A stretch of DNA of 64,000 bases from Seison nebaliae (Eukaryota), in the NCBI GenBank assembly GCA_023231475.1, contig JALJEE010000635.1, positions 1 to 64,000 on the forward strand, written 5' to 3'. The notes below the pieces were generated by a model. That model ran no database searches. It saw only the letters and a list, made by a program, of their open reading frames with translations, and had not been told where the DNA came from. Position numbers and translations under genes: made by a program. Shown here piece by piece: positions 18,034 to 52,823 of this stretch (the first letter of the stretch is position 1; every line of letters begins with the position of its first letter).

Positions 18034-18464
18034 ATGGGAGATGAAGTTCCGAATTAAATTTCTTTAATGAATTTTATTCTCTATTAAACTCTTTAGGCAC
18101 TCTTCATCATCGAAGACATTAATGCGATAGTTAAGGATGTTAGTCTAGCAATAATCTTCTTCCACTTTCTTCTAACTGCCAATTTATAAAGTCGATCGAA
18201 AGTGTAATACGTAACGCTCAATATAATGCGGGGAAAGTGGATGAATGGACGAACGACATCATCGAACAATGTCTCTTAAGTCTCCTGCATTTGAATCGAC
18301 CCTTTAAATATATCGTCACTTGTACGATCTTACAAAAGACTGGTGCTGGTTACCATATGGTCTGCAGCTATTATTGGGATCAAACATCCGACGGTGTCAC
18401 CACCATCAGATGGGAAAGTAGAACTTTATATGTCATCGTTAGTGTATTCGGATTAGCTATTTGA
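18034..18464 (+). CDS. Dynein light chain Tctex-type (DYNLT1/3 family), 3 exons
   Basis: Spliced MGDE|ALFIIEDINAIVKD|SIESVIRNAQYNAGKVDEWT...FKYIVTCTILQK...YWDQTSDG; introns 18046-18096 and 18139-18191. Confidence 0.9.
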
Positions 18465-42074: not shown

Positions 42075-45000
42075 TCATAGACCTTGTGGTTTCTCGGATG
42101 TTGTGTCATACATTCGAATAACGTCGCCTGGTTTCACTGGACCGTCATCGACTTGTGAGAAGGCGTAACCTCGATACGTCGTCCCGTCGTCGTTCTGACC
42201 GATATTGGACGTCTGATCCGACCGTTGGACACTCTTCTTGAACATGTTATGGAATTTGGTCAACTTCCTGAAAAGTGGTGCTCGTTCCATATCTCCCGAT
42301 TGCATTTGAGCGAGTTCACTCTCTTGCACTTCTTGAGCCAAGGTCTTGAATAAGGATCGTTGAATTACGGATGCGACGAAATCGACCAATAATGTCGCAC
42401 ACGGGATCAAAAGAAGTCCCGCCCAAAATTGTGTTGACATATAAATATGGTTTCCAATTCGTGCCATATCCGCTCCCAGAAATGTGAGAGATGGCCAAAT
42501 CATACTGTAGATGATGAGGAAAAGAAACCAGGAAACGATAGAGAAAGCGAATGCTAAAAGATTCGGCCATGTCCAACTATTGGTGACCAGTCCCGCTTTC
42601 ACACAAACCACCACAACGGTATAAGTGTAAATATAATTTCCAAAATATAACAATCCACCAGCTGTCCCGTCATGTTCCATATCGTGTAACAAAAAGAAAT
42701 ATGTCAAATAAAATAACATGAGTGAATGGAGAAGACTTTGAATGATCCATTGCCAGAAGACTTTATAATTGAAATCCGTATGATTCTGAGACATTCGATA
42801 TAATTGTGGGAAACGGAGCATTGTCTTATCACTACAAATCCGATCAAGTAGACCCAACGTCAATGGGAGAGTAGCAGTGAACACCACATTATAAATAGCG
42901 ATCGACCACCGATCGAACACAATCTGCCCACTGAATGCTGAATGAATAGCGAACCATAATTCGATGACATATAATGTTACATTTTTGTAGAATGAATAAA
43001 GTATCACTTTTGCCAATCGCCAATAACTCCATGCTCCATGTACGAATAATAATCGTTCGAGAAATCGAAATTGTGCTATCGTATAATCAGATGCACACGC
43101 TGCTTGCATTCCCTCATTCCCCGTGATGCCCACTCCCACATTTGCCGCTTGAATCATTCCCACATCATTCGCCCCATCTCCAATTGCCAATGTGATGGCT
43201 TCTGTATTCTTCTTAACCAGTTCAACCATTTCCGCTTTCTGCATAGGTGACACACGACAACAAATAACTGTGGCACAATCGATGACTAAATTCAAAAAAT
43301 CTTGACGACATTGTGTGGACAAACAATATTTCAATGTCGACCCATCAACAATTAAAGCTTGCTTTATCACATTTAAATTCTCATTATTTGGCGATTCTAT
43401 CGACGACATTTGATTCCGTCTTTTATTGTTCATTTCCAGAATTTGTTGAAGACAATCATCTTTACTTGTTGATTGTAAAGAAAGTAAATGCATGGACGGT
43501 TGAAGTAATTGTGTAGAATAACCGATATTAATAGCCGTTTCACGTTTATCACCTGTCAATACCCACAAATTAATTTCTGCTTCTAATAAATTTGAAATAC
43601 ATTTTCCCACTCCATCTTGTAAACGATCTTCAATTCCCGTTCCACCTAACAATTCCAAATTCCTTTCAATTTCATCTGCACATTTCTCAATATGTTCCTC
43701 TCGATTATCTAATCTTACCGCTGCTTCCATATATTTTGAATTCCATTTCTCATAAATCTCTTCTGATAATTCTTTATAAGCACAACATAAAGTCCTCAAA
43801 CCAAATTTGGCGAATTGTTCCAAATGTTCTTTCGTATCTTCCAAATATTTCGATTTAGATGATAATCGTTCAAAAATGATGGAATCGGCACCTTTACAAA
43901 ATAAAAGAATTCGATTTCCTCCAAAATTCTCTCTCAAAATCACCGTCATTCTTTTACGATCTGATGTAAATTCGACGATATTTAACAATTCATATCGACG
44001 TTTCTCTTGAAGGAAATCCAATAATAATGATGTGGCATTCCGTTCACGAAATACAAATCCACTCATTCTCATCGCATCAACAATCGCTTCCTCATCAGGT
44101 GATGATGCCTGATAATTAATATCACCACCAATATCTTTATTATCGAAATATGCTTTCTTTTCCGGTATGATGGTATGACAACTGATGAGGAGAGTGATGA
44201 AAAGATCCGTCATCTCACTCATCTCATTATTGAGTTTTAGAGCTTTGCGTAATTCATATGAACTAAATTCACTATCACCAGTTCCATAAATTAAACCGGC
44301 GACGGTACATTGACGGAATTTCATCACATTCTCCGTTAGAGTTCCCGTTTTATCTGAGAAAATATATTTGACTTGTCCCAATTCCTCATTCAAATTCGAC
44401 GTTCGAGCATTAGCTGATATGACATTTTGTTCATTAGGTTGATGATCATTAAAACCGGTAGGAGATGATCCAAGATGGTTTTGTATCATATGTTTCATTT
44501 CCGTATCACTATTGATATATTGAGCTTGGAAATATTTGACGACTTCCAATGTCACTTGAAGTGAAATTGGAATGAGATTATTATAGAGAATAATGAAAGT
44601 GAGAATGTTTAAAAAGACACTCGTTTTCGTCGAATTACTCAATGCCAAATACCAATGTTCGTGAGTTTTAAGAGCGAAATTAACGGTAGCTGAAATGACG
44701 GACATAAGAAGTAAAATGAAGAATAAAAAAATAATTAATTTATTCGTCATCTTTTCCATATTTGATCGTTTGGATGGAACACGACGAGAATTCATCATTA
44801 ATTTCGATTCATGTCCAGTGTATAAAACGATGGCATAAATCCATGAAGTATTCTTCAATTGAGAACCACGTAACAAAATTTGATTTGGACCCAATGGACT
44901 CACTTCCTCTTCGTGCAATGATTGTTTGAGATAGATCGTTCCACAGAATTCATACAAATGTCGATTTGGTGCTTCACATTCGATTCGACCTTGTAATTGT

Positions 45001-45659
45001 TTGAGAGTGGAAATAGTGAGACATTTCGATGTACAATCGACTGCTTGACGAATTTTCAAATTTGTCTCACCATCCAAATTAGCCGTTTGTACATAACAAA
45101 CACCATTGGGCTCACTTGATGAAATGAGGAGGAGATCCGCAGGAAATAAATGACCATCTTGACATTTGACGAAATCGCCAACTTCGATATCTTTCCATTT
45201 GAAATAATCCCAAATACCGTTACGATAAACGAGAATTTTCGAATTATTTATCTTCCCATCTTGAATATGACGTTTCCAATCCTCCATTATCTCCTTACAA
45301 GCCGATACAATCAATATGAGAACTAGTGGGACGAGAGTGGTGAATCGACCAGTAGGTGACACATCATTCAATTGTTGAAGGAATACGATGAAGGCGAAGA
45401 AGATATTTGAATATTTTCGGAATTGTTCAAAGAGAAATTTCGGTAAGAATAAAAGGAACGTATATTTACTCGTACTAATCTCGTTCGATGAGAATCGATC
45501 ACTTTGTGGCTCATTCAAATTAATAATACGAGTCAGTTCTCCACTATTATCCTCCAAATCATCATTCGAATATTTCTCATGTTTCTGTCTCGTACGACAA
45601 CGGAATGCTTGTCTCAATCGTCCCCGTCTCTTCCAGAATTGGAGATCTTCCAATTTCAT
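42075..45659 (-). CDS. P4-type ATPase phospholipid flippase, ATP8A subfamily
   Basis: DGETN, 'PISL', DKTGTLT phosphorylation site, GDGAND, TM1 'LQQ' and C-terminal 'GYAFS' motif typical of ATP8A/Drs2; single 3585 bp ORF. Confidence 0.96.
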   Translation of the reverse strand: MKLEDLQFWKRRGRLRQAFRCRTRQKHEKYSNDDLEDNSGELTRIINLNEPQSDRFSSNEISTSKYTFLLFLPKFLFEQFRKYSNIFFAFIVFLQQLNDVSPTGRFTTLVPLVLILIVSACKEIMEDWKRHIQDGKINNSKILVYRNGIWDYFKWKDIEVGDFVKCQDGHLFPADLLLISSSEPNGVCYVQTANLDGETNLKIRQAVDCTSKCLTISTLKQLQGRIECEAPNRHLYEFCGTIYLKQSLHEEEVSPLGPNQILLRGSQLKNTSWIYAIVLYTGHESKLMMNSRRVPSKRSNMEKMTNKLIIFLFFILLLMSVISATVNFALKTHEHWYLALSNSTKTSVFLNILTFIILYNNLIPISLQVTLEVVKYFQAQYINSDTEMKHMIQNHLGSSPTGFNDHQPNEQNVISANARTSNLNEELGQVKYIFSDKTGTLTENVMKFRQCTVAGLIYGTGDSEFSSYELRKALKLNNEMSEMTDLFITLLISCHTIIPEKKAYFDNKDIGGDINYQASSPDEEAIVDAMRMSGFVFRERNATSLLLDFLQEKRRYELLNIVEFTSDRKRMTVILRENFGGNRILLFCKGADSIIFERLSSKSKYLEDTKEHLEQFAKFGLRTLCCAYKELSEEIYEKWNSKYMEAAVRLDNREEHIEKCADEIERNLELLGGTGIEDRLQDGVGKCISNLLEAEINLWVLTGDKRETAINIGYSTQLLQPSMHLLSLQSTSKDDCLQQILEMNNKRRNQMSSIESPNNENLNVIKQALIVDGSTLKYCLSTQCRQDFLNLVIDCATVICCRVSPMQKAEMVELVKKNTEAITLAIGDGANDVGMIQAANVGVGITGNEGMQAACASDYTIAQFRFLERLLFVHGAWSYWRLAKVILYSFYKNVTLYVIELWFAIHSAFSGQIVFDRWSIAIYNVVFTATLPLTLGLLDRICSDKTMLRFPQLYRMSQNHTDFNYKVFWQWIIQSLLHSLMLFYLTYFFLLHDMEHDGTAGGLLYFGNYIYTYTVVVVCVKAGLVTNSWTWPNLLAFAFSIVSWFLFLIIYSMIWPSLTFLGADMARIGNHIYMSTQFWAGLLLIPCATLLVDFVASVIQRSLFKTLAQEVQESELAQMQSGDMERAPLFRKLTKFHNMFKKSVQRSDQTSNIGQNDDGTTYRGYAFSQVDDGPVKPGDVIRMYDTTSEKPQGL

Positions 45660-47823
45660 TTTATTTAAACTCTTATTATAATAATTAATTAATTAATTAA
45701 TAATGGAAATTTTTTGAAAATTATTTCTAATTTCTCTTCTCGTTTAATAGTGGTTTGTGTTATCGAATTCGAAAGATTTTCTCGATTCTCCAACTCATCA
45801 TTGAATTGATCTATCGAATATGAATTAAATTTGATATATGAAAAAATAGTGTTTCGTCAAAAAAAAAAAAACATAAATTTCTCTCTCTCTCTCTCTCTTT
45901 TCAAACAATTTTCATGTATCTATCAAATACATTTGTAATTTCTCTTTCTTCTCTCCCATTGACAGTGATAATTCACTTATCAAACAACATATGAAACGAG
46001 GAGTAATGTACAGAGAGAAAATGGAGTGACATAGAAGAAAAGAACATACCAATCATTTGATTGTATAAATTCATGTCCGCATAGATATGTATTCACACGT
46101 CCTTCACATCCAAAAGTCGATTGAAACGTACATGAAAAAGTCATTTACATATTCCTGATACTCATCAATTGGAGAGAATTGGGGAGAATTATGAAAATAG
46201 TTTTTAAAGAAATTTCATTGTGAACATTCTTCCTCCATCCAATCGAATGGAAACATGAAACAATGTGTGATGATGGAGCCTGAAATTTTGTTTGGAAGAA
46301 AATGAATTCTTCAAGAAATGTTTGAGGAAGCGAATAAGGTGAAATGTCATCAACTTATTAGTTTGCTCTCTTTTTTCCGCAGATGATTCATATTATTTAA
46401 CGAATGATTAATTAATTTTTGAAAATTTCCAGTTCATCATCTTGTTCAATATTTATGTAAGTTGACCAAATTCGATAACTAAATTATTCGGCCTAACCAG
46501 TTTGCTTAACTTTCTCTTTCATTTGTTTATCTCACTTCCAATTTAACTTTTCATTCCACTCGACATCGTCCCCCCTTAATCATCACTATCAGTAAGAGAT
46601 TCTCTTCATTTTCCAAGGTTTCCTTTATTTACATAACGAATTGTTGAAAGTTGGATTGTCATCTTGGAAACTTCTTTCAATTTCAATGTCTCCATTATAA
46701 TTAGTTCATCCAATTTCACTCACAACAACAACAACAACAACAACATGTTCAAATGGAAATTGTTATTATTTGAAATTGTTTCATGACATATCTCAATTCA
46801 ATTCAATCAATTCCTTTCCAGAAAGATTTCTTCTTTCCAAATGACGTATAATAATTATTACATAATTCCAATTAAGAATCTAGTCGTCTTCCGAGACGAT
46901 TTATCATTTTCATTCGGAAATGAATAAATGATAATTTACTCTCGTCGTGATAAGAGTCGAGTGTAGAAAGATTGATTACAGACAAAAATTATCTATAAAC
47001 ATATGGATATGGTGAATATGAAATTTCAAATTAAACAAATTTAATTTACTTTAAAAATTTTAAGTTTCCAAAAACAGTTCACTTATTTTCATGGAGAACA
47101 CAAAAATTTCACATTTCTTCACAAATTCTTGTGTGACTCGTTTTTCATGAGTGTTCAATAACACTTTGACAAAATTGGAGGAGAAGAATAACTGATAATT
47201 CTCTTGAATTTTTTTTAATTATTCTCATTCTCTTTATTATTCGCTTTTTATAAGAGTCGAATATGAATCTCAATTGACGGATAAAGTAAATTAAAAATGG
47301 TTGATAATGTTTATTATTATATTGCATTTAGTGTGCGAATATTATTGTGAATAATACGTACTATATATATATATATATATATATGTATTATCTCCTTTCT
47401 GATATAAGCGGATATTATATTTTAATTAGATCGTCAGTTAACAGGAAATTGCCTAAGCGTATCCCAATCTACTTTGTTGTTGTTGCAGTTGTTGTTATAA
47501 ATTCCTTTCAATTTTATAAGCTTGTTATTTCAAAAAAAAATATTAAATTAAATTCTTGATGATGGTGATGATGATGAATTAAAGAAATTTAATAGAATTA
47601 AATAAATCTTCTAAAGAATTTGAAGGAGTACGAAAGGAATATATTAACGTCTTCAAATACTTCGAAAAAGGACGTCATCAGTTTAAGCTTAAATTCTGAA
47701 TGGAACCGAGAAATATGATGGACAGACGAAATGGGAATGAGTGAGAAAAATTTGACACGTATATCTAGGAAGGAAGAAACAGAAAATTCATTATTTCATT
47801 TTTGCGCTTTTAATTCAGCTCGA

Positions 47824-48138
47824 TTGTAGTTGAGAAACTACAAAAAAAATTTTGGTAGAATAGTCTTCCTGGGGTGCCTCCTAAAGAGGCATGTCGATTC
47901 TAAAACTAGGAAGAAGCGACAAACCCAGGAAGACTATTAACCTCAAGGAAGGATTGATGTCACAATCCACTGGTCATCATTCAGTGGGAGAGAATGAGAC
48001 ATTGGTGAAGGAGAAATATGGAACAATTTCCTGCTGAAGATATGGAACTCCCACTGATCCTAATTGATGGAAGAAAACTAAAAGAAGTTCTTCATTGGAC
48101 ATCATTAAGAGGAATATGTGGAGACATTATGCTCCTCT
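47824..48138 (+). ncRNA. Unassigned structured RNA candidate (five stem modules, Sm-like site)
   Basis: Stems at 47824-47843 (GAGA loop), 47859-47873/47924-47938 (15 bp, closing two inner hairpins), 47951-47968, 47981-47990/48048-48057, 48108-48138; AATTTTGG at 47848-47855. Confidence 0.45.
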
Positions 48139-48441
48139 ACTCAAAATACTTCCAGTTCAATTCAACAACAACAACAAATACTACTCAATTCAAAAGACGA
48201 GAAAAGCGAAAAATGGAATTAATTTCAATTAATTGTTTTTTTAAATAAAATATTTTTTTTAAAAATCTTCTTCAACTTTCTTTCAACAATTTTCTTTTAT
48301 TCTCTTAATTTTATTAATCTATTAAATATCTGGAAATTGAAAGGAATTTCAATATATTTTCTTCATTTTGAGAGAAAGATAATTAATAATTTATAATATC
48401 ATAAAATAATTTCACGTTTTTTCAACGATTTGATGATGGAT

Positions 48442-49634
48442 CTATTCGATGTCGTTATTATGTTCCCACAAATATTTCTTTAAACTTTGACATTGCTGAT
48501 ATCGGAGCATTTCCTTGATAGCGTTCGTTCGTCGTGAAGGATATTGTTTATCATTCTGTAGAATTCTCTTCATCGTTTTCACTTCCTTCAACGTCAACAA
48601 ACAATTAAGAATAGATTTGTGAGGTAGACCATCAGATGGATTATTGAACGATTCCATCAACTCATTCGAATAGTAGAAGAGAATGTACATGATAACTAAA
48701 AGGAACGATAAGATCATTGTAACAATCATAATCGTTCCCCATCTTAATACACGTGCACCAGTTATATATTGGAGTGTTTTACGTACAGCGTTGACGATAA
48801 TACCGAAAACGAGACGGAAAACTGAAAAGGAAGAATGAAATGGAATTAAACGGAAAAAGGAAAACTGTTATAAACGAAAGTTTTATGTTTAGCGAAAGTG
48901 AGTGCACGTCCACGAAAATGATCAGAACGTCGAATTAGAGGAACGGCGATAAAATCGGATGCTCGATAACTCCGTAACGCCTCATTGACACTAGGTTTCT
49001 TTTGGCTTTTTTCTTTAATGGAAATTGGAATTTTCAAATTAGCCATCATTTTCGTCTTATTGAATGCGGTGGCAAAATTGTAAATTGTTGGCGGTTCAAC
49101 AAAATAATAAACCATGAGAAAATGATCTACAACTTTTTTCACTCGAGGTGCTAATTGAATGATTATGTGAGCCGTACTTTTTGGTTGAATGACACCCTGA
49201 TATGGTCTAATCGCATAATATGGTTGATTAACTAACACTTTGAAAAGGAGAGCGTCTCGATTCACATTCTTTAATTTCATCACAATTTGCTCACATTCTC
49301 CCGACGGTTTCCCTATCACCAATTTAGCTGGTAAAGCGACCAGATCATATGGTGGCAATTCAATATGAAATTGATTCTTTTTCGAAAAATTCGATACTTT
49401 ACTTATGAAACTCTGATTACTATTGACTGATGTTTGACTAACGGACGTTAGAGATGTGGATAATTTTAGTTTCTTTATCGGAGTATCGATTTCCGATTCG
49501 GCTGTATGGAAATTAGCAATCGATTCCGCTTGATACTGATAACTTTTTCCAGTCACATAATAATAGGAATTGGTGATATCAGAAAAAGGAACGTCATCAG
49601 ATTCGATAGTCGATACACCATCTTCTGATTCCAT
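48442..49634 (-). CDS. MSP-domain (VAP/MOSPD-like) membrane protein, 2 exons
   Basis: 'MKLKNVNRDALLFKVLVNQPYYAIRPYQGVIQPKST' MSP-like; intron GTTTTC...TTCAG (~48822-48865) joins to an exon with TM 'IMIVTMILSFLLVIMYILFYY'. Confidence 0.65.
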
Positions 49635-50256: not shown

Positions 50257-52823
50257 TCAATATTCACCTGTCGATTCGGAATCGTCATCAACTCCTTTCC
50301 CTTCCTGACTGAATTCCATCGAACTCGATCCAACTTCATTATAGAAATGATAGTTCTCGTCCGTCATGTCGATGGCCCATTTAAATTTGTCTCGTTGTGT
50401 CTTGCTATAAAGTTTAGTTATTGGAATATTGAACTTTTTACTCCTACACAATCAATGAACATGATCAATTCAAATCATTAAAATCAACTAACCAAGCAAC
50501 TGTGATACGAGGATCTAAATAATTCAATTTGGATGTACCTAAGGCGATCGACTTATTTTCTTTTTTATCTGTCGTCTGCATTTCCAACTTATCTTTCCTC
50601 TGACTTAATCGATCCACATCTTTTTCTTTTTTCTCCACATTTCTAAATTTTTTAAATGAAAAATACAAATAAAAATATTTGACAATTAAAAAAAAAAAAA
50701 TTTGACAATTTAAAAAAAAAAAATTTGACAATTTGAAAAAAAACTTTGAAAATTAAAAAAAAAACTTTGAAAATTAAAAAAATATATTTGAAAATTTAAA
50801 AAGAAGAATAATAGAATAAAAGACAAAAGAAAATAAACTTTTTTGCTGTTAATGATCGATCGGATTTAGCAGAGAGACGAGCTTCTTTCAATGACTTCCT
50901 TGCAATTTTCAACTGATCAGTCACGTCACTTAATTTAGTCTCTAAATTTTCGATGGATTTATCGAAGGTTTTGGGCGGTGCACGACGATGGTTGCATAGA
51001 ATGGCTACTTCTCGATTTGCTCGATTGTATGCGAGAATTTTTTGTTCACTTGTTGCGGCGGCTAATGAAAATGAATGTTAAATGAAAATTAATAGAAAAA
51101 TGAACGATTTGTTTGGATGTCCAATTGTTCCTGTAGAGTTCTGGAAGCGTTATACGTTCGGAAAACTTTAGCGGTCAATCCGGTCATGAGTTCTTGAAGA
51201 TATTTGTTTAAATAAGAAGTCTAATAAAAAATTGAATGAAAGAAATGGAAGAAATAAATAAATTTAACTGTAAGCCAATCAAAGAGATCTTCGCTCGGTT
51301 TCTTATTGTTAAGGAAGAGTAATAGACGCTCATAAACTTCTGGAATGACTTTGACTTTGTTTTCATATCGAATTGAATCTTTTCCGAGGAAATCGAATTC
51401 TACATAATAATCTTTTTCTTCTTCTACTAAATTGACATGCTCACATCTTAATGAACAACAACCGACTGTATCAGCTTCATCTTCATCTTTCTCGTTACCA
51501 GCTCTCAATGCGAGAACATCGATGAAATAGAGAGCGACGGCTCTTTGTGCAATTTTCCGATCTTTCGATTTCATATCAGCCATATAATTTGCACGGACGT
51601 TATTAATAATGTTATGGAGACGTCGAGCCTTTTCAAATTTCTCAAGATCTCGTTCACCTTTCATTTTTGAATTAGCATTTAACATTACATATTTGATTTG
51701 ACCTTGCACATTCTCCGTCCATGTTGCTAACCAGGAAACTTTATTATCATGAATTATCTGTTTCCAACGATGGTTATTAGGCGCTGATGGAACTGGACAA
51801 CATTTGGACATATTTAACGTGATATCTTCTGGTTGGACACGTCGTTTCACTTTACCTCGTTTCGGATGTTCGCCACGTCCACGAAAAAGACCGGGTGGTT
51901 CTAATTTCCAATTACCCACCAATTGTTTATGACCATCAATGAGACAAACACCATAATTGAGTTTGAGAAGATTTTCAGCTTCTTTTGCTGCTTTTTTCTC
52001 TTCTTTTGATCGCGCCTTTTTCTCCTCAGATAAATGCTCGTAATATGCATGAACTTCTCGGAAATTACATTTAGATAAATCTTTAATAATTTCACGTTCA
52101 CTTTTCAACATGCCATCACGCCAATCATTAAAGAAATTTGTATTAAACACTTCTTGTTTAGTATAATCATGATTTAACATTTTTGCATAAAATCCCATAA
52201 TCTCTTCCGTTAATAACGATAATTTCATTGGAACTTTATCATAATAAAAATTTATGTTTTTTGGAAGTGACTCATATTCTGGTGCTAACATAACACCTTT
52301 ATGATGCAATGTCGTCCATTTTCGACCATCTTCATATCCTTTCTCTTTCCACCATTCCCATACATCTTCCGTCACTGCTGATAATGATGCTGATGATTCT
52401 TTTTTTTCTTTTTTAATTTCACTTTTCGTTTCTGTCATTGATTTCCTTTTTGGAGCTTTTCTTCCAACTGACATCGTCGATATCGATGATGATGATTCTT
52501 TTTTGATCTGATGTGTCGGATCTGATAAACGTTTACCGTTCGTCAACCGTTTATTTTCACTGTTAATTCGAGTTGCACTAAATGATACTTTGTCAATTGG
52601 CTCCTTTTTCACCTTTTCCTCTTCCTCCTCTTTTATTCGCACTTTCTTCACCGAATTTATATTACCATGATTATTCACTTTTTGATGGTTTCTAACCGTC
52701 ATCGATATCGGTGTACTTTTCCCATTATTAGTTTTCTGTTTCATTTCAATTTTTCTTTTTAATAATATTTTTCTTCGTCTTCGTCTTCTTTCCGATTCTT
52801 CGTCTGATGATGAAGATGACGAC

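Follow-up and report, generated by a model that had tools for sequence, protein, structure and literature searches.

A stably folded, single-copy non-coding element in the genome of Seison nebaliae and its possible kinship with Sm-class small nuclear RNAs

What occupies the intergenic gap at 47824-48138 of a 64,000-nt stretch of the Seison nebaliae genome (assembly GCA_023231475.1, contig JALJEE010000635.1, positions 1-64,000; hereafter the window)? The window is compact, AT-rich animal genome sequence, and a first-pass annotation made from its letters placed here an unassigned, multi-stem structured RNA of ~315 nt with an Sm-like site, for which a divergent snRNA, an SL RNA, an RNase P/MRP-type RNA or a novel RNA was considered. 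Every motif listed in that annotation was found at its position, and the central claim, that the structured non-coding element is real and single-copy, is upheld, given that the folding beats shuffled controls and dispersed near-identical copies are absent. The non-coding, single-copy island at this locus contains a genuine fold of 125 nt with unusual stability, which is perhaps part of a unit of 300-350 nt. We place the core at ~47800-47948; that it extends to ~48155 is a weakly supported possibility.

The annotated GC-richer island is borne out by composition, with 39% GC in 47824-48138 compared to 29% upstream and 21% downstream. In 50-nt bins, GC content is 36-46% throughout 47850-48150; most of the bins on either side have 14-30%, and a single one, at 47700, has 40%. 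About 290 nt separate the element from the stop of a minus-strand frame (48442-48867), and an MSP-domain gene adjoins. The element is non-coding: its longest open reading frame (48018-48245), which is without a match in Pfam and in a homologue search, scored -0.007 in a codon model derived from the window, where real coding sequence scores 0.19 +/- 0.09 (n = 122 pieces) and non-coding sequence -0.07 (n = 336 pieces).

Folding energy distinguishes the element from shuffled sequences, as the first-pass annotation had proposed to check: 47800-48160 has a z-score of -5.4 on the plus strand, where none of 100 shuffles folded as well, and an equal one of -5.6 on the minus strand. The signal is uneven and concentrated in the first 125 nt (47824-47948), with z about -8. 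Thus, 47845-47945 yielded z-scores of -7.0 and -8.4, compared to -1.7 and -1.3 for 47945-48155. For 47945-48160, an independent run returned a z-score of -1.35 and 23 shuffles out of 200 that folded equally well, so the folding signal sits in 47845-47945, and the remainder folds as shuffled sequence does. The 120-nt segment at 47821 has the lowest minimum free energy (MFE) among 1065 such segments and, at z -8.1, is second among the 162 that were scored, after a palindrome at the start of the window. Perfect stems of at least 10 bp with at least four G/C number 38 in the 64-kb window, four of them reaching 15 bp, and the longest stem in shuffled sequences reached 13 bp in 1 of 300 and 15 bp in none of 300; a 10-bp stem alone is therefore ordinary here, and a 15-bp stem is not. 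At 1-264, we also observed a long AT-rich inverted repeat with 74-nt arms that are 92% complementary, the strongest fold in the window (z -12.6), which may be a MITE or a foldback element.

Table 1. Predicted structural features of the element, by position in the window
Feature	Positions	Strand	Basis or remark
Weak hairpin	47802-47822	+	in MFE and centroid structures
Perfect 8-bp hairpin with GAGA (GNRA) loop	47824-47843	+	pair probability 0.85 on +, 0.03 on -
AA and eight U, candidate Sm-like site or Pol III terminator	47842-47851	-	rival reading of the same run
Sm-like site AAUUUUGG, preceded by a run of A	47848-47855	+	motif census; pair probabilities
End-to-end helix, ~11 bp with one bulge, closing 299 nt	47849-47859/48136-48147	both	probability 0.96 on -, 0.03 on +
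Three-way junction, whole	47859-47938	+	arms and stem pair probability 0.98-0.99; z -7 to -8
Perfect 15-bp stem closing the three-way junction	47859-47873/47924-47938	+	pair probability 0.98-0.99
Junction arm 1, 6-7 bp	47874-47892 (as a motif, 47875-47891)	+	pair probability 0.98-0.99
Junction arm 2, 4-5 bp with inner helix	47892-47921	+	pair probability 0.98-0.99
Second domain, GC-richer, weakly folded	47947-48153	+	36-44% GC in 50-nt bins; z -1.35
6-bp stem	47951-47968	+	pair probability 0.22
Perfect 10-bp stem	47981-47990/48048-48057	+	pair probability 0.98
AGAGAA (47989), UGGAA (48043)	inner ends of the 10-bp stem	+	RNase P CR-II/CR-III-like
Terminal hairpin with GGAG loop	48108-48138	+	pair probability 0.95 on +

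Two domains can be told apart, which may or may not form one RNA (Table 1). In the first (about 47800-47948), the AAUUUU of the Sm-like motif (47848-47858) is predicted to be unpaired (0.74-0.99) and the adjoining GGU to be paired, so that the site annotated as single-stranded is predicted to be so only in its first part. The motif RAU4-6GR is found in 237 of 2000 shuffles (12%, or 22% over both strands) and has 63 occurrences in the window; by itself it is therefore weak evidence. Two GU dinucleotides, at 47826 and 47829, lie in the GAGA hairpin, 23 and 20 nt 5' of the site, and the helix list includes an alternative 7-bp pairing of 47814-47820 with 47828-47834. The inner TTCTA/TAGGA register assigned to the junction has a pair probability of only 0.02 on the plus strand, and the annotated 6-bp hairpin at 47951-47968 is likewise poorly predicted (Table 1).

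In the second domain, the annotated 10-bp stem and both of its flanking motifs are present, the closing GGAAG/CUUCC helix has a pair probability of 0.69 on the plus strand, and a 7-bp helix (47955-47961/48098-48104) one of 0.63. Only 2 of 2000 shuffles had AGAGAA and UGGAA together within a long, perfect stem, and a helix joining the two ends with equal stability arose in 18 of 1000 shuffles on the plus strand and 31 of 1000 on the minus strand; both the CR-II/CR-III-like stem pattern and the helix ends were chosen post hoc, so these frequencies are suggestive only. The second domain may belong to the same RNA as the first, given the continuous GC island, the pairing of the island's edges and the rare AGAGAA/UGGAA stem. 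Two alternative pairings are open to four related GGAAG/CUUCC segments (47859-47869, 47928-47938, 47947-47955 and 48145-48153), and would make a conformational switch between the two domains possible.

Which strand would be transcribed is a separate question, and folding energy does not discriminate between the two. The first-pass annotation had favoured the plus strand for its GNRA loop and a U.G wobble; the wobble argument fails because the G.U counts (1 and 1 in the core, 8 and 8 overall) and the folding are equal on both strands, and the loop argument stands. On the plus strand, the element folds with GAGA and GGAG tetraloops and its unpaired bases are mostly A (65 of 118), compared to U on the minus strand (51 of 110). 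Structured RNAs typically have loops rich in A. On the minus strand, the ends close with a probability of 0.96 and are followed by eight U, and four U4 runs are internal. Based on the A-rich unpaired bases and the GNRA loop, the plus strand is probably the relevant one.

The element is single-copy, although older, diverged copies are possible. Of seven sequencing runs listed, five, from two studies, contain this stretch. In each of two runs from two studies (X1 and X2), a single contig covers 47396-49930 without a break and at the depth of the flanks; the depth over 47838-48004 equals the contig's own (8.1 and 16.2, respectively), and no other contig adds depth, with the limit that copy number was taken from read contigs and that the window may itself derive from X1 or X2. 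Contigs of this kind would be interrupted if near-identical copies were dispersed in the genome, so a MITE family, for which the annotation had suggested looking for many dispersed copies, is unlikely; these were not found, and the flanks carry no target-site duplication. Searches with parts of the element yielded no relatives: a 19-nt arm pattern had a single match among viral contigs, with unrelated flanks; the AGAGAA/TGGAA stem pattern matched at least 118 metagenomic loci and the hairpin pattern five loci in prokaryote genomes, none of the listed loci resembling the element beyond the pattern; the best nhmmer E-value against the element among the listed viral, metagenome and prokaryote pattern matches was 0.81; and blastn of the element against phages gave no match.

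Several observations concern the neighbourhood. Low-depth contigs ~82-90% identical to the window cover 48446-48579, 46317-46399, 48963-49018 and 50292-50409, and in a divergent contig at 48478-48538 many changes fall in steps of three. These contigs point to a second divergent lineage or a paralogue in the DNA runs; the second lineage, present at low depth in one DNA sample, covers 48446-48579 and not the element. A 69-codon protein-like frame on the minus strand (46145-46354), which overlaps the divergent contig at 46317-46399 and has no match in Pfam or the protein atlas, may represent one exon of a small gene that lacks annotation. Farther upstream, an intronless gene of 1194 codons (42078-45659, minus strand) encodes a P4-type phospholipid flippase (P4-ATPase), with bdelloid rotifers among its best named matches (48-53% identity) and only ~53% identity to its nearest relatives. 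In a FastTree phylogeny of 49 of the 120 listed rows, the only tree method used, it groups with bdelloids and three other sequences (support 100), on a branch long enough (0.84) to make the placement of the host with bdelloids unsure. Six imperfect A-rich tandem units of 21-23 nt each lie at 50657-50806, and a 48-nt direct repeat with 90% identity occupies 701-748 and 836-883, 135 nt apart.

We then compared the element with known RNA families, and it matches no catalogued one. Rfam searches gave no match at the gathering score across the 64 kb and, as suggested in the first-pass annotation, relaxed thresholds (E up to 10, 47790-48170) returned five chance-level matches only (E 1.6-8.1), all at least 19 bits below the cut-off. 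The defining motifs of the spliceosomal RNAs are the ACUUACC 5' end of U1, the GUGUAGUA-type branch-point region of U2, the GCCUUUUAC loop of U5 and the ACAGAGA box of U6, and that of SRP RNA is the helix 8 CAGG-tetraloop-AGCA. None of the four spliceosomal motifs occurs on either strand of 47780-48180, in agreement with the annotation as to U1, U2 and U5, and the helix 8 motif has no match in the window. U4, U11, U12, U4atac and U6atac were rejected for want of a covariance-model match in Rfam. RNase MRP RNA is described with a GAAAGUC-type CR-I, then P5 and a GARAR P8 loop (PMC13184271); no CR-I motif is present on either strand, and the position of the GARAR loop was judged by eye. SECIS, U3, C/D and H/ACA snoRNAs, the hammerhead and the histone stem-loop were dropped after comparison by eye with their consensus, with no Rfam match. 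A tRNA scan found nothing, and a sigma-70 promoter scan, irrelevant to this host, stayed at chance level. Thus, among the candidates of the first-pass annotation, the U1/U2/U5/U6 types and RNase P/MRP lack their defining motifs, and the SL RNA passes a loose layout test. A literature search found no description of snRNA, SL, 7SK or telomerase RNA genes for seisonids.

The annotation had also linked a divergent snRNA to GTT splice donors. One such donor is verified: removal of a 53-nt intron (18139-18191, donor GTTAGT) restores a continuous frame in what we take, from reading its protein, to be a dynein light-chain gene. GTTCGT is over-represented in the window (55 observed vs 32 expected), and an MSP-gene intron with a guessed acceptor gave no open frame. 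The complements of five donor hexamers were sought in the element; one is present, inside the junction at 47919, and none is exposed at the 5' end, so the element is not evidently an adapted U1 and the proposed link finds no support.

Our preferred reading, which we hold tentatively, is that the element may be the gene of an Sm-class small nuclear RNA on the plus strand, SL- or SmY-like, its family unproven. The plus strand would be transcribed by RNA polymerase II, and the transcript would be capped and then undergo Sm-core assembly and cap hypermethylation as in U snRNAs, with the Sm ring loading on the U-rich single-stranded run that separates the GAGA hairpin from the three-way junction; the junction could act as a protein platform. 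Such a particle would serve trans- or cis-splicing, as a leader donor or SmY-like helper, and in an SL-type RNA the hairpin at 47802-47822 would hold a leader of 23-25 nt. A T5 run lies upstream at 47799, and the next downstream run of at least five T only at 48236. In SL RNAs, the donor GU lies on the 3' side of the first stem; the alternative helix 47814-47820/47828-47834 would put the GU at 47829 on the 3' side of a first stem. In the Sm layout, the Sm ring assembles on a single-stranded U-rich site between a hairpin and a stem (PMC5131775), and the predicted fold has the same order, hairpin, single-stranded AAUUUU, stem. The default SL-RNA layout of SLIDR has a GT donor followed, after 20-60 nt, by AT{4,6}G, with stems on the flanks; the same source lists rotifers among trans-splicing groups and gives SL RNA genes as often multi-copy, 2 to 110 (PMC7986045). 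Both GT dinucleotides, at 47826 and 47829, fit this layout in what is a loose test.

The element shares with SL RNAs a GU 20-23 nt 5' of an AU4G site with flanking stem-loops, and would be ~145 nt long if it ended at 47948; unlike them, it is single-copy, both of its candidate donors are buried in the perfect 8-bp hairpin without a preceding AG, and its 3' part is an 80-nt three-way junction instead of a short hairpin. Nematode SmY and orphan Sm-class RNAs consist of a hairpin, an Sm site and a stem, with no splice-site-pairing motif. The element, with its Sm-like site, has a similar predicted order and likewise no splice-site-pairing motif, and differs from SmY in its longer, branched 3' domain, the lack of an Rfam match and the phylum. 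Like U2 and U12, which have an Sm site in the 5' half, it has an Sm-like site there, with two hairpins before it and a large 3' domain after it; however, it lacks a branch-point sequence (by the tested U2 pattern), its GUAGUU look-alike lies within a stem, and there is no Rfam match. On these likenesses, the element appears to resemble SL or SmY RNAs most, and we do not class it as a member of either. The chance frequency of the Sm motif in shuffles and the predicted pairing of the GG of the site count against the Sm-class reading, which leaves the second domain and the end-to-end helix unexplained.

Alternatively, there could be no independent RNA gene at this locus, which instead would be a DNA inverted repeat, a solitary mobile-element relic or a folded UTR cis-element of a neighbour gene. 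We regard this as possible, if rather doubtful: the long stems are perfect Watson-Crick helices with almost no G.U, as in DNA inverted repeats, both strands fold equally, the core folded as DNA reaches z -10.6, the 11-bp repeat that pairs the two ends might be the terminal inverted repeat, a short one, of such a relic, and the element has neither family motif nor homologue; yet the unbroken contigs of X1 and X2 speak against near-identical copies, the flanks show no target-site duplication, and the branched junction, the tetraloops and the GC island exceed a simple palindrome. The minus strand offers a different solution, which we consider unlikely, namely a Pol III RNA of ~310 nt that would start at G 48153, be closed by the end-to-end helix and end in U8 (47849-47842). 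In its favour, the closure probability on that strand is high, and U8 follows directly. A further 5' helix is possible, in which GGAAG pairs with CUUCC (47951-47947); with the terminal stem and U tail that come after it, this resembles the 7SK M1/M8 layout (PMC10083321 and PMC8406779). Such an RNA could be a 7SK-like protein scaffold without the HEXIM motif. 7SK, however, requires a repeated, paired GAUC (PMC10083321), compared to the single GAUC here (48056-48059); furthermore, U4 runs at 47902, 48074, 48080 and 48143, of a kind that often stops Pol III, are internal, the loops would be U-rich, the terminal stem is 80 nt and branched, and Rfam gives no match. A telomerase RNA on the same strand, in which the junction would serve as CR4/5 with the long arm preceding the short hairpin, is highly improbable. 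The order is P5 - P6 - P6.1-like and the short loop begins with UU, whereas protostome telomerase RNAs have no canonical three-way CR4/5, and animal ones end in H/ACA (PMC8480181 and PMC11892584). In the helix lists and the motif census, no H/ACA end and no convincing pseudoknot is evident, and the 48 template-like repeats listed are too numerous to be specific; a literature search found no paper on rotifer telomerase RNA.

Two further readings, both improbable in our estimate, take up particular parts of the plus strand. A highly divergent nuclear RNase P RNA, with its specificity domain at 47951-48061 and the terminal hairpin as P19, would suit the AGAGAA and UGGAA inside the 10-bp stem (as CR-II/CR-III in P10/11; the first-pass annotation had compared this stem's flanks with those of P12), with the chance frequency given above, and also the helix order (like P8, P10/11, P12, P15 and P19), the ACUCAA after the last hairpin and the size of ~300 nt. 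The conserved core of RNase P is P4 (PMC4919922), and here that part of the proposal breaks down: GGAARNUC and GAAAGUC are absent on both strands, leaving no CR-I/CR-V pseudoknot core, and the best P4-like strand is locked in the 15-bp stem, so that forcing the pairing 47928-47938/48145-48153, which lacks the bulged U, costs 20 kcal/mol (-92.5 vs -112.4) because it opens that stem. The RF00009 model found no match at E 10, although it matches 11 of 14 prokaryote controls, none over the cut-off. A microRNA precursor would instead use arms at 47850-47873 and 47924-47948 around a long, branched loop of 50 nt. Long-loop precursors are reported for a seisonid rotifer (loops 62 +/- 30 nt; PMC12553114), with precursor hairpins of 75-175 nt (PMC12256650), and the GGAAGAC of the 3' arm is shared with Mir-7 matures in the table of the former. 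The likeness to Mir-7, however, is on the wrong arm and ends after 11 nt, the stem is ~22 bp at best compared to about 33 bp for a precursor, there is no lower stem, none of five element motifs occurs among the 29 Seison rows consulted, and Rfam mir models have no match inside the element. Most speculatively, and with very little probability, both domains could form one plus-strand RNA of 330-350 nt in which the Sm site is combined with a CR-II/CR-III module of RNase P type and the catalytic P4 core is missing; it would be a new class of snRNP that recognises tRNA-shaped RNA without cutting it, the module gripping the tRNA elbow.

Genomes of the rotifer clade evolve fast, and housekeeping RNAs there escape Rfam. 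If the element is an Sm-class RNA, as we tentatively propose, it would open trans-splicing, or else an orphan snRNP, to experimental test in the seisonid lineage.
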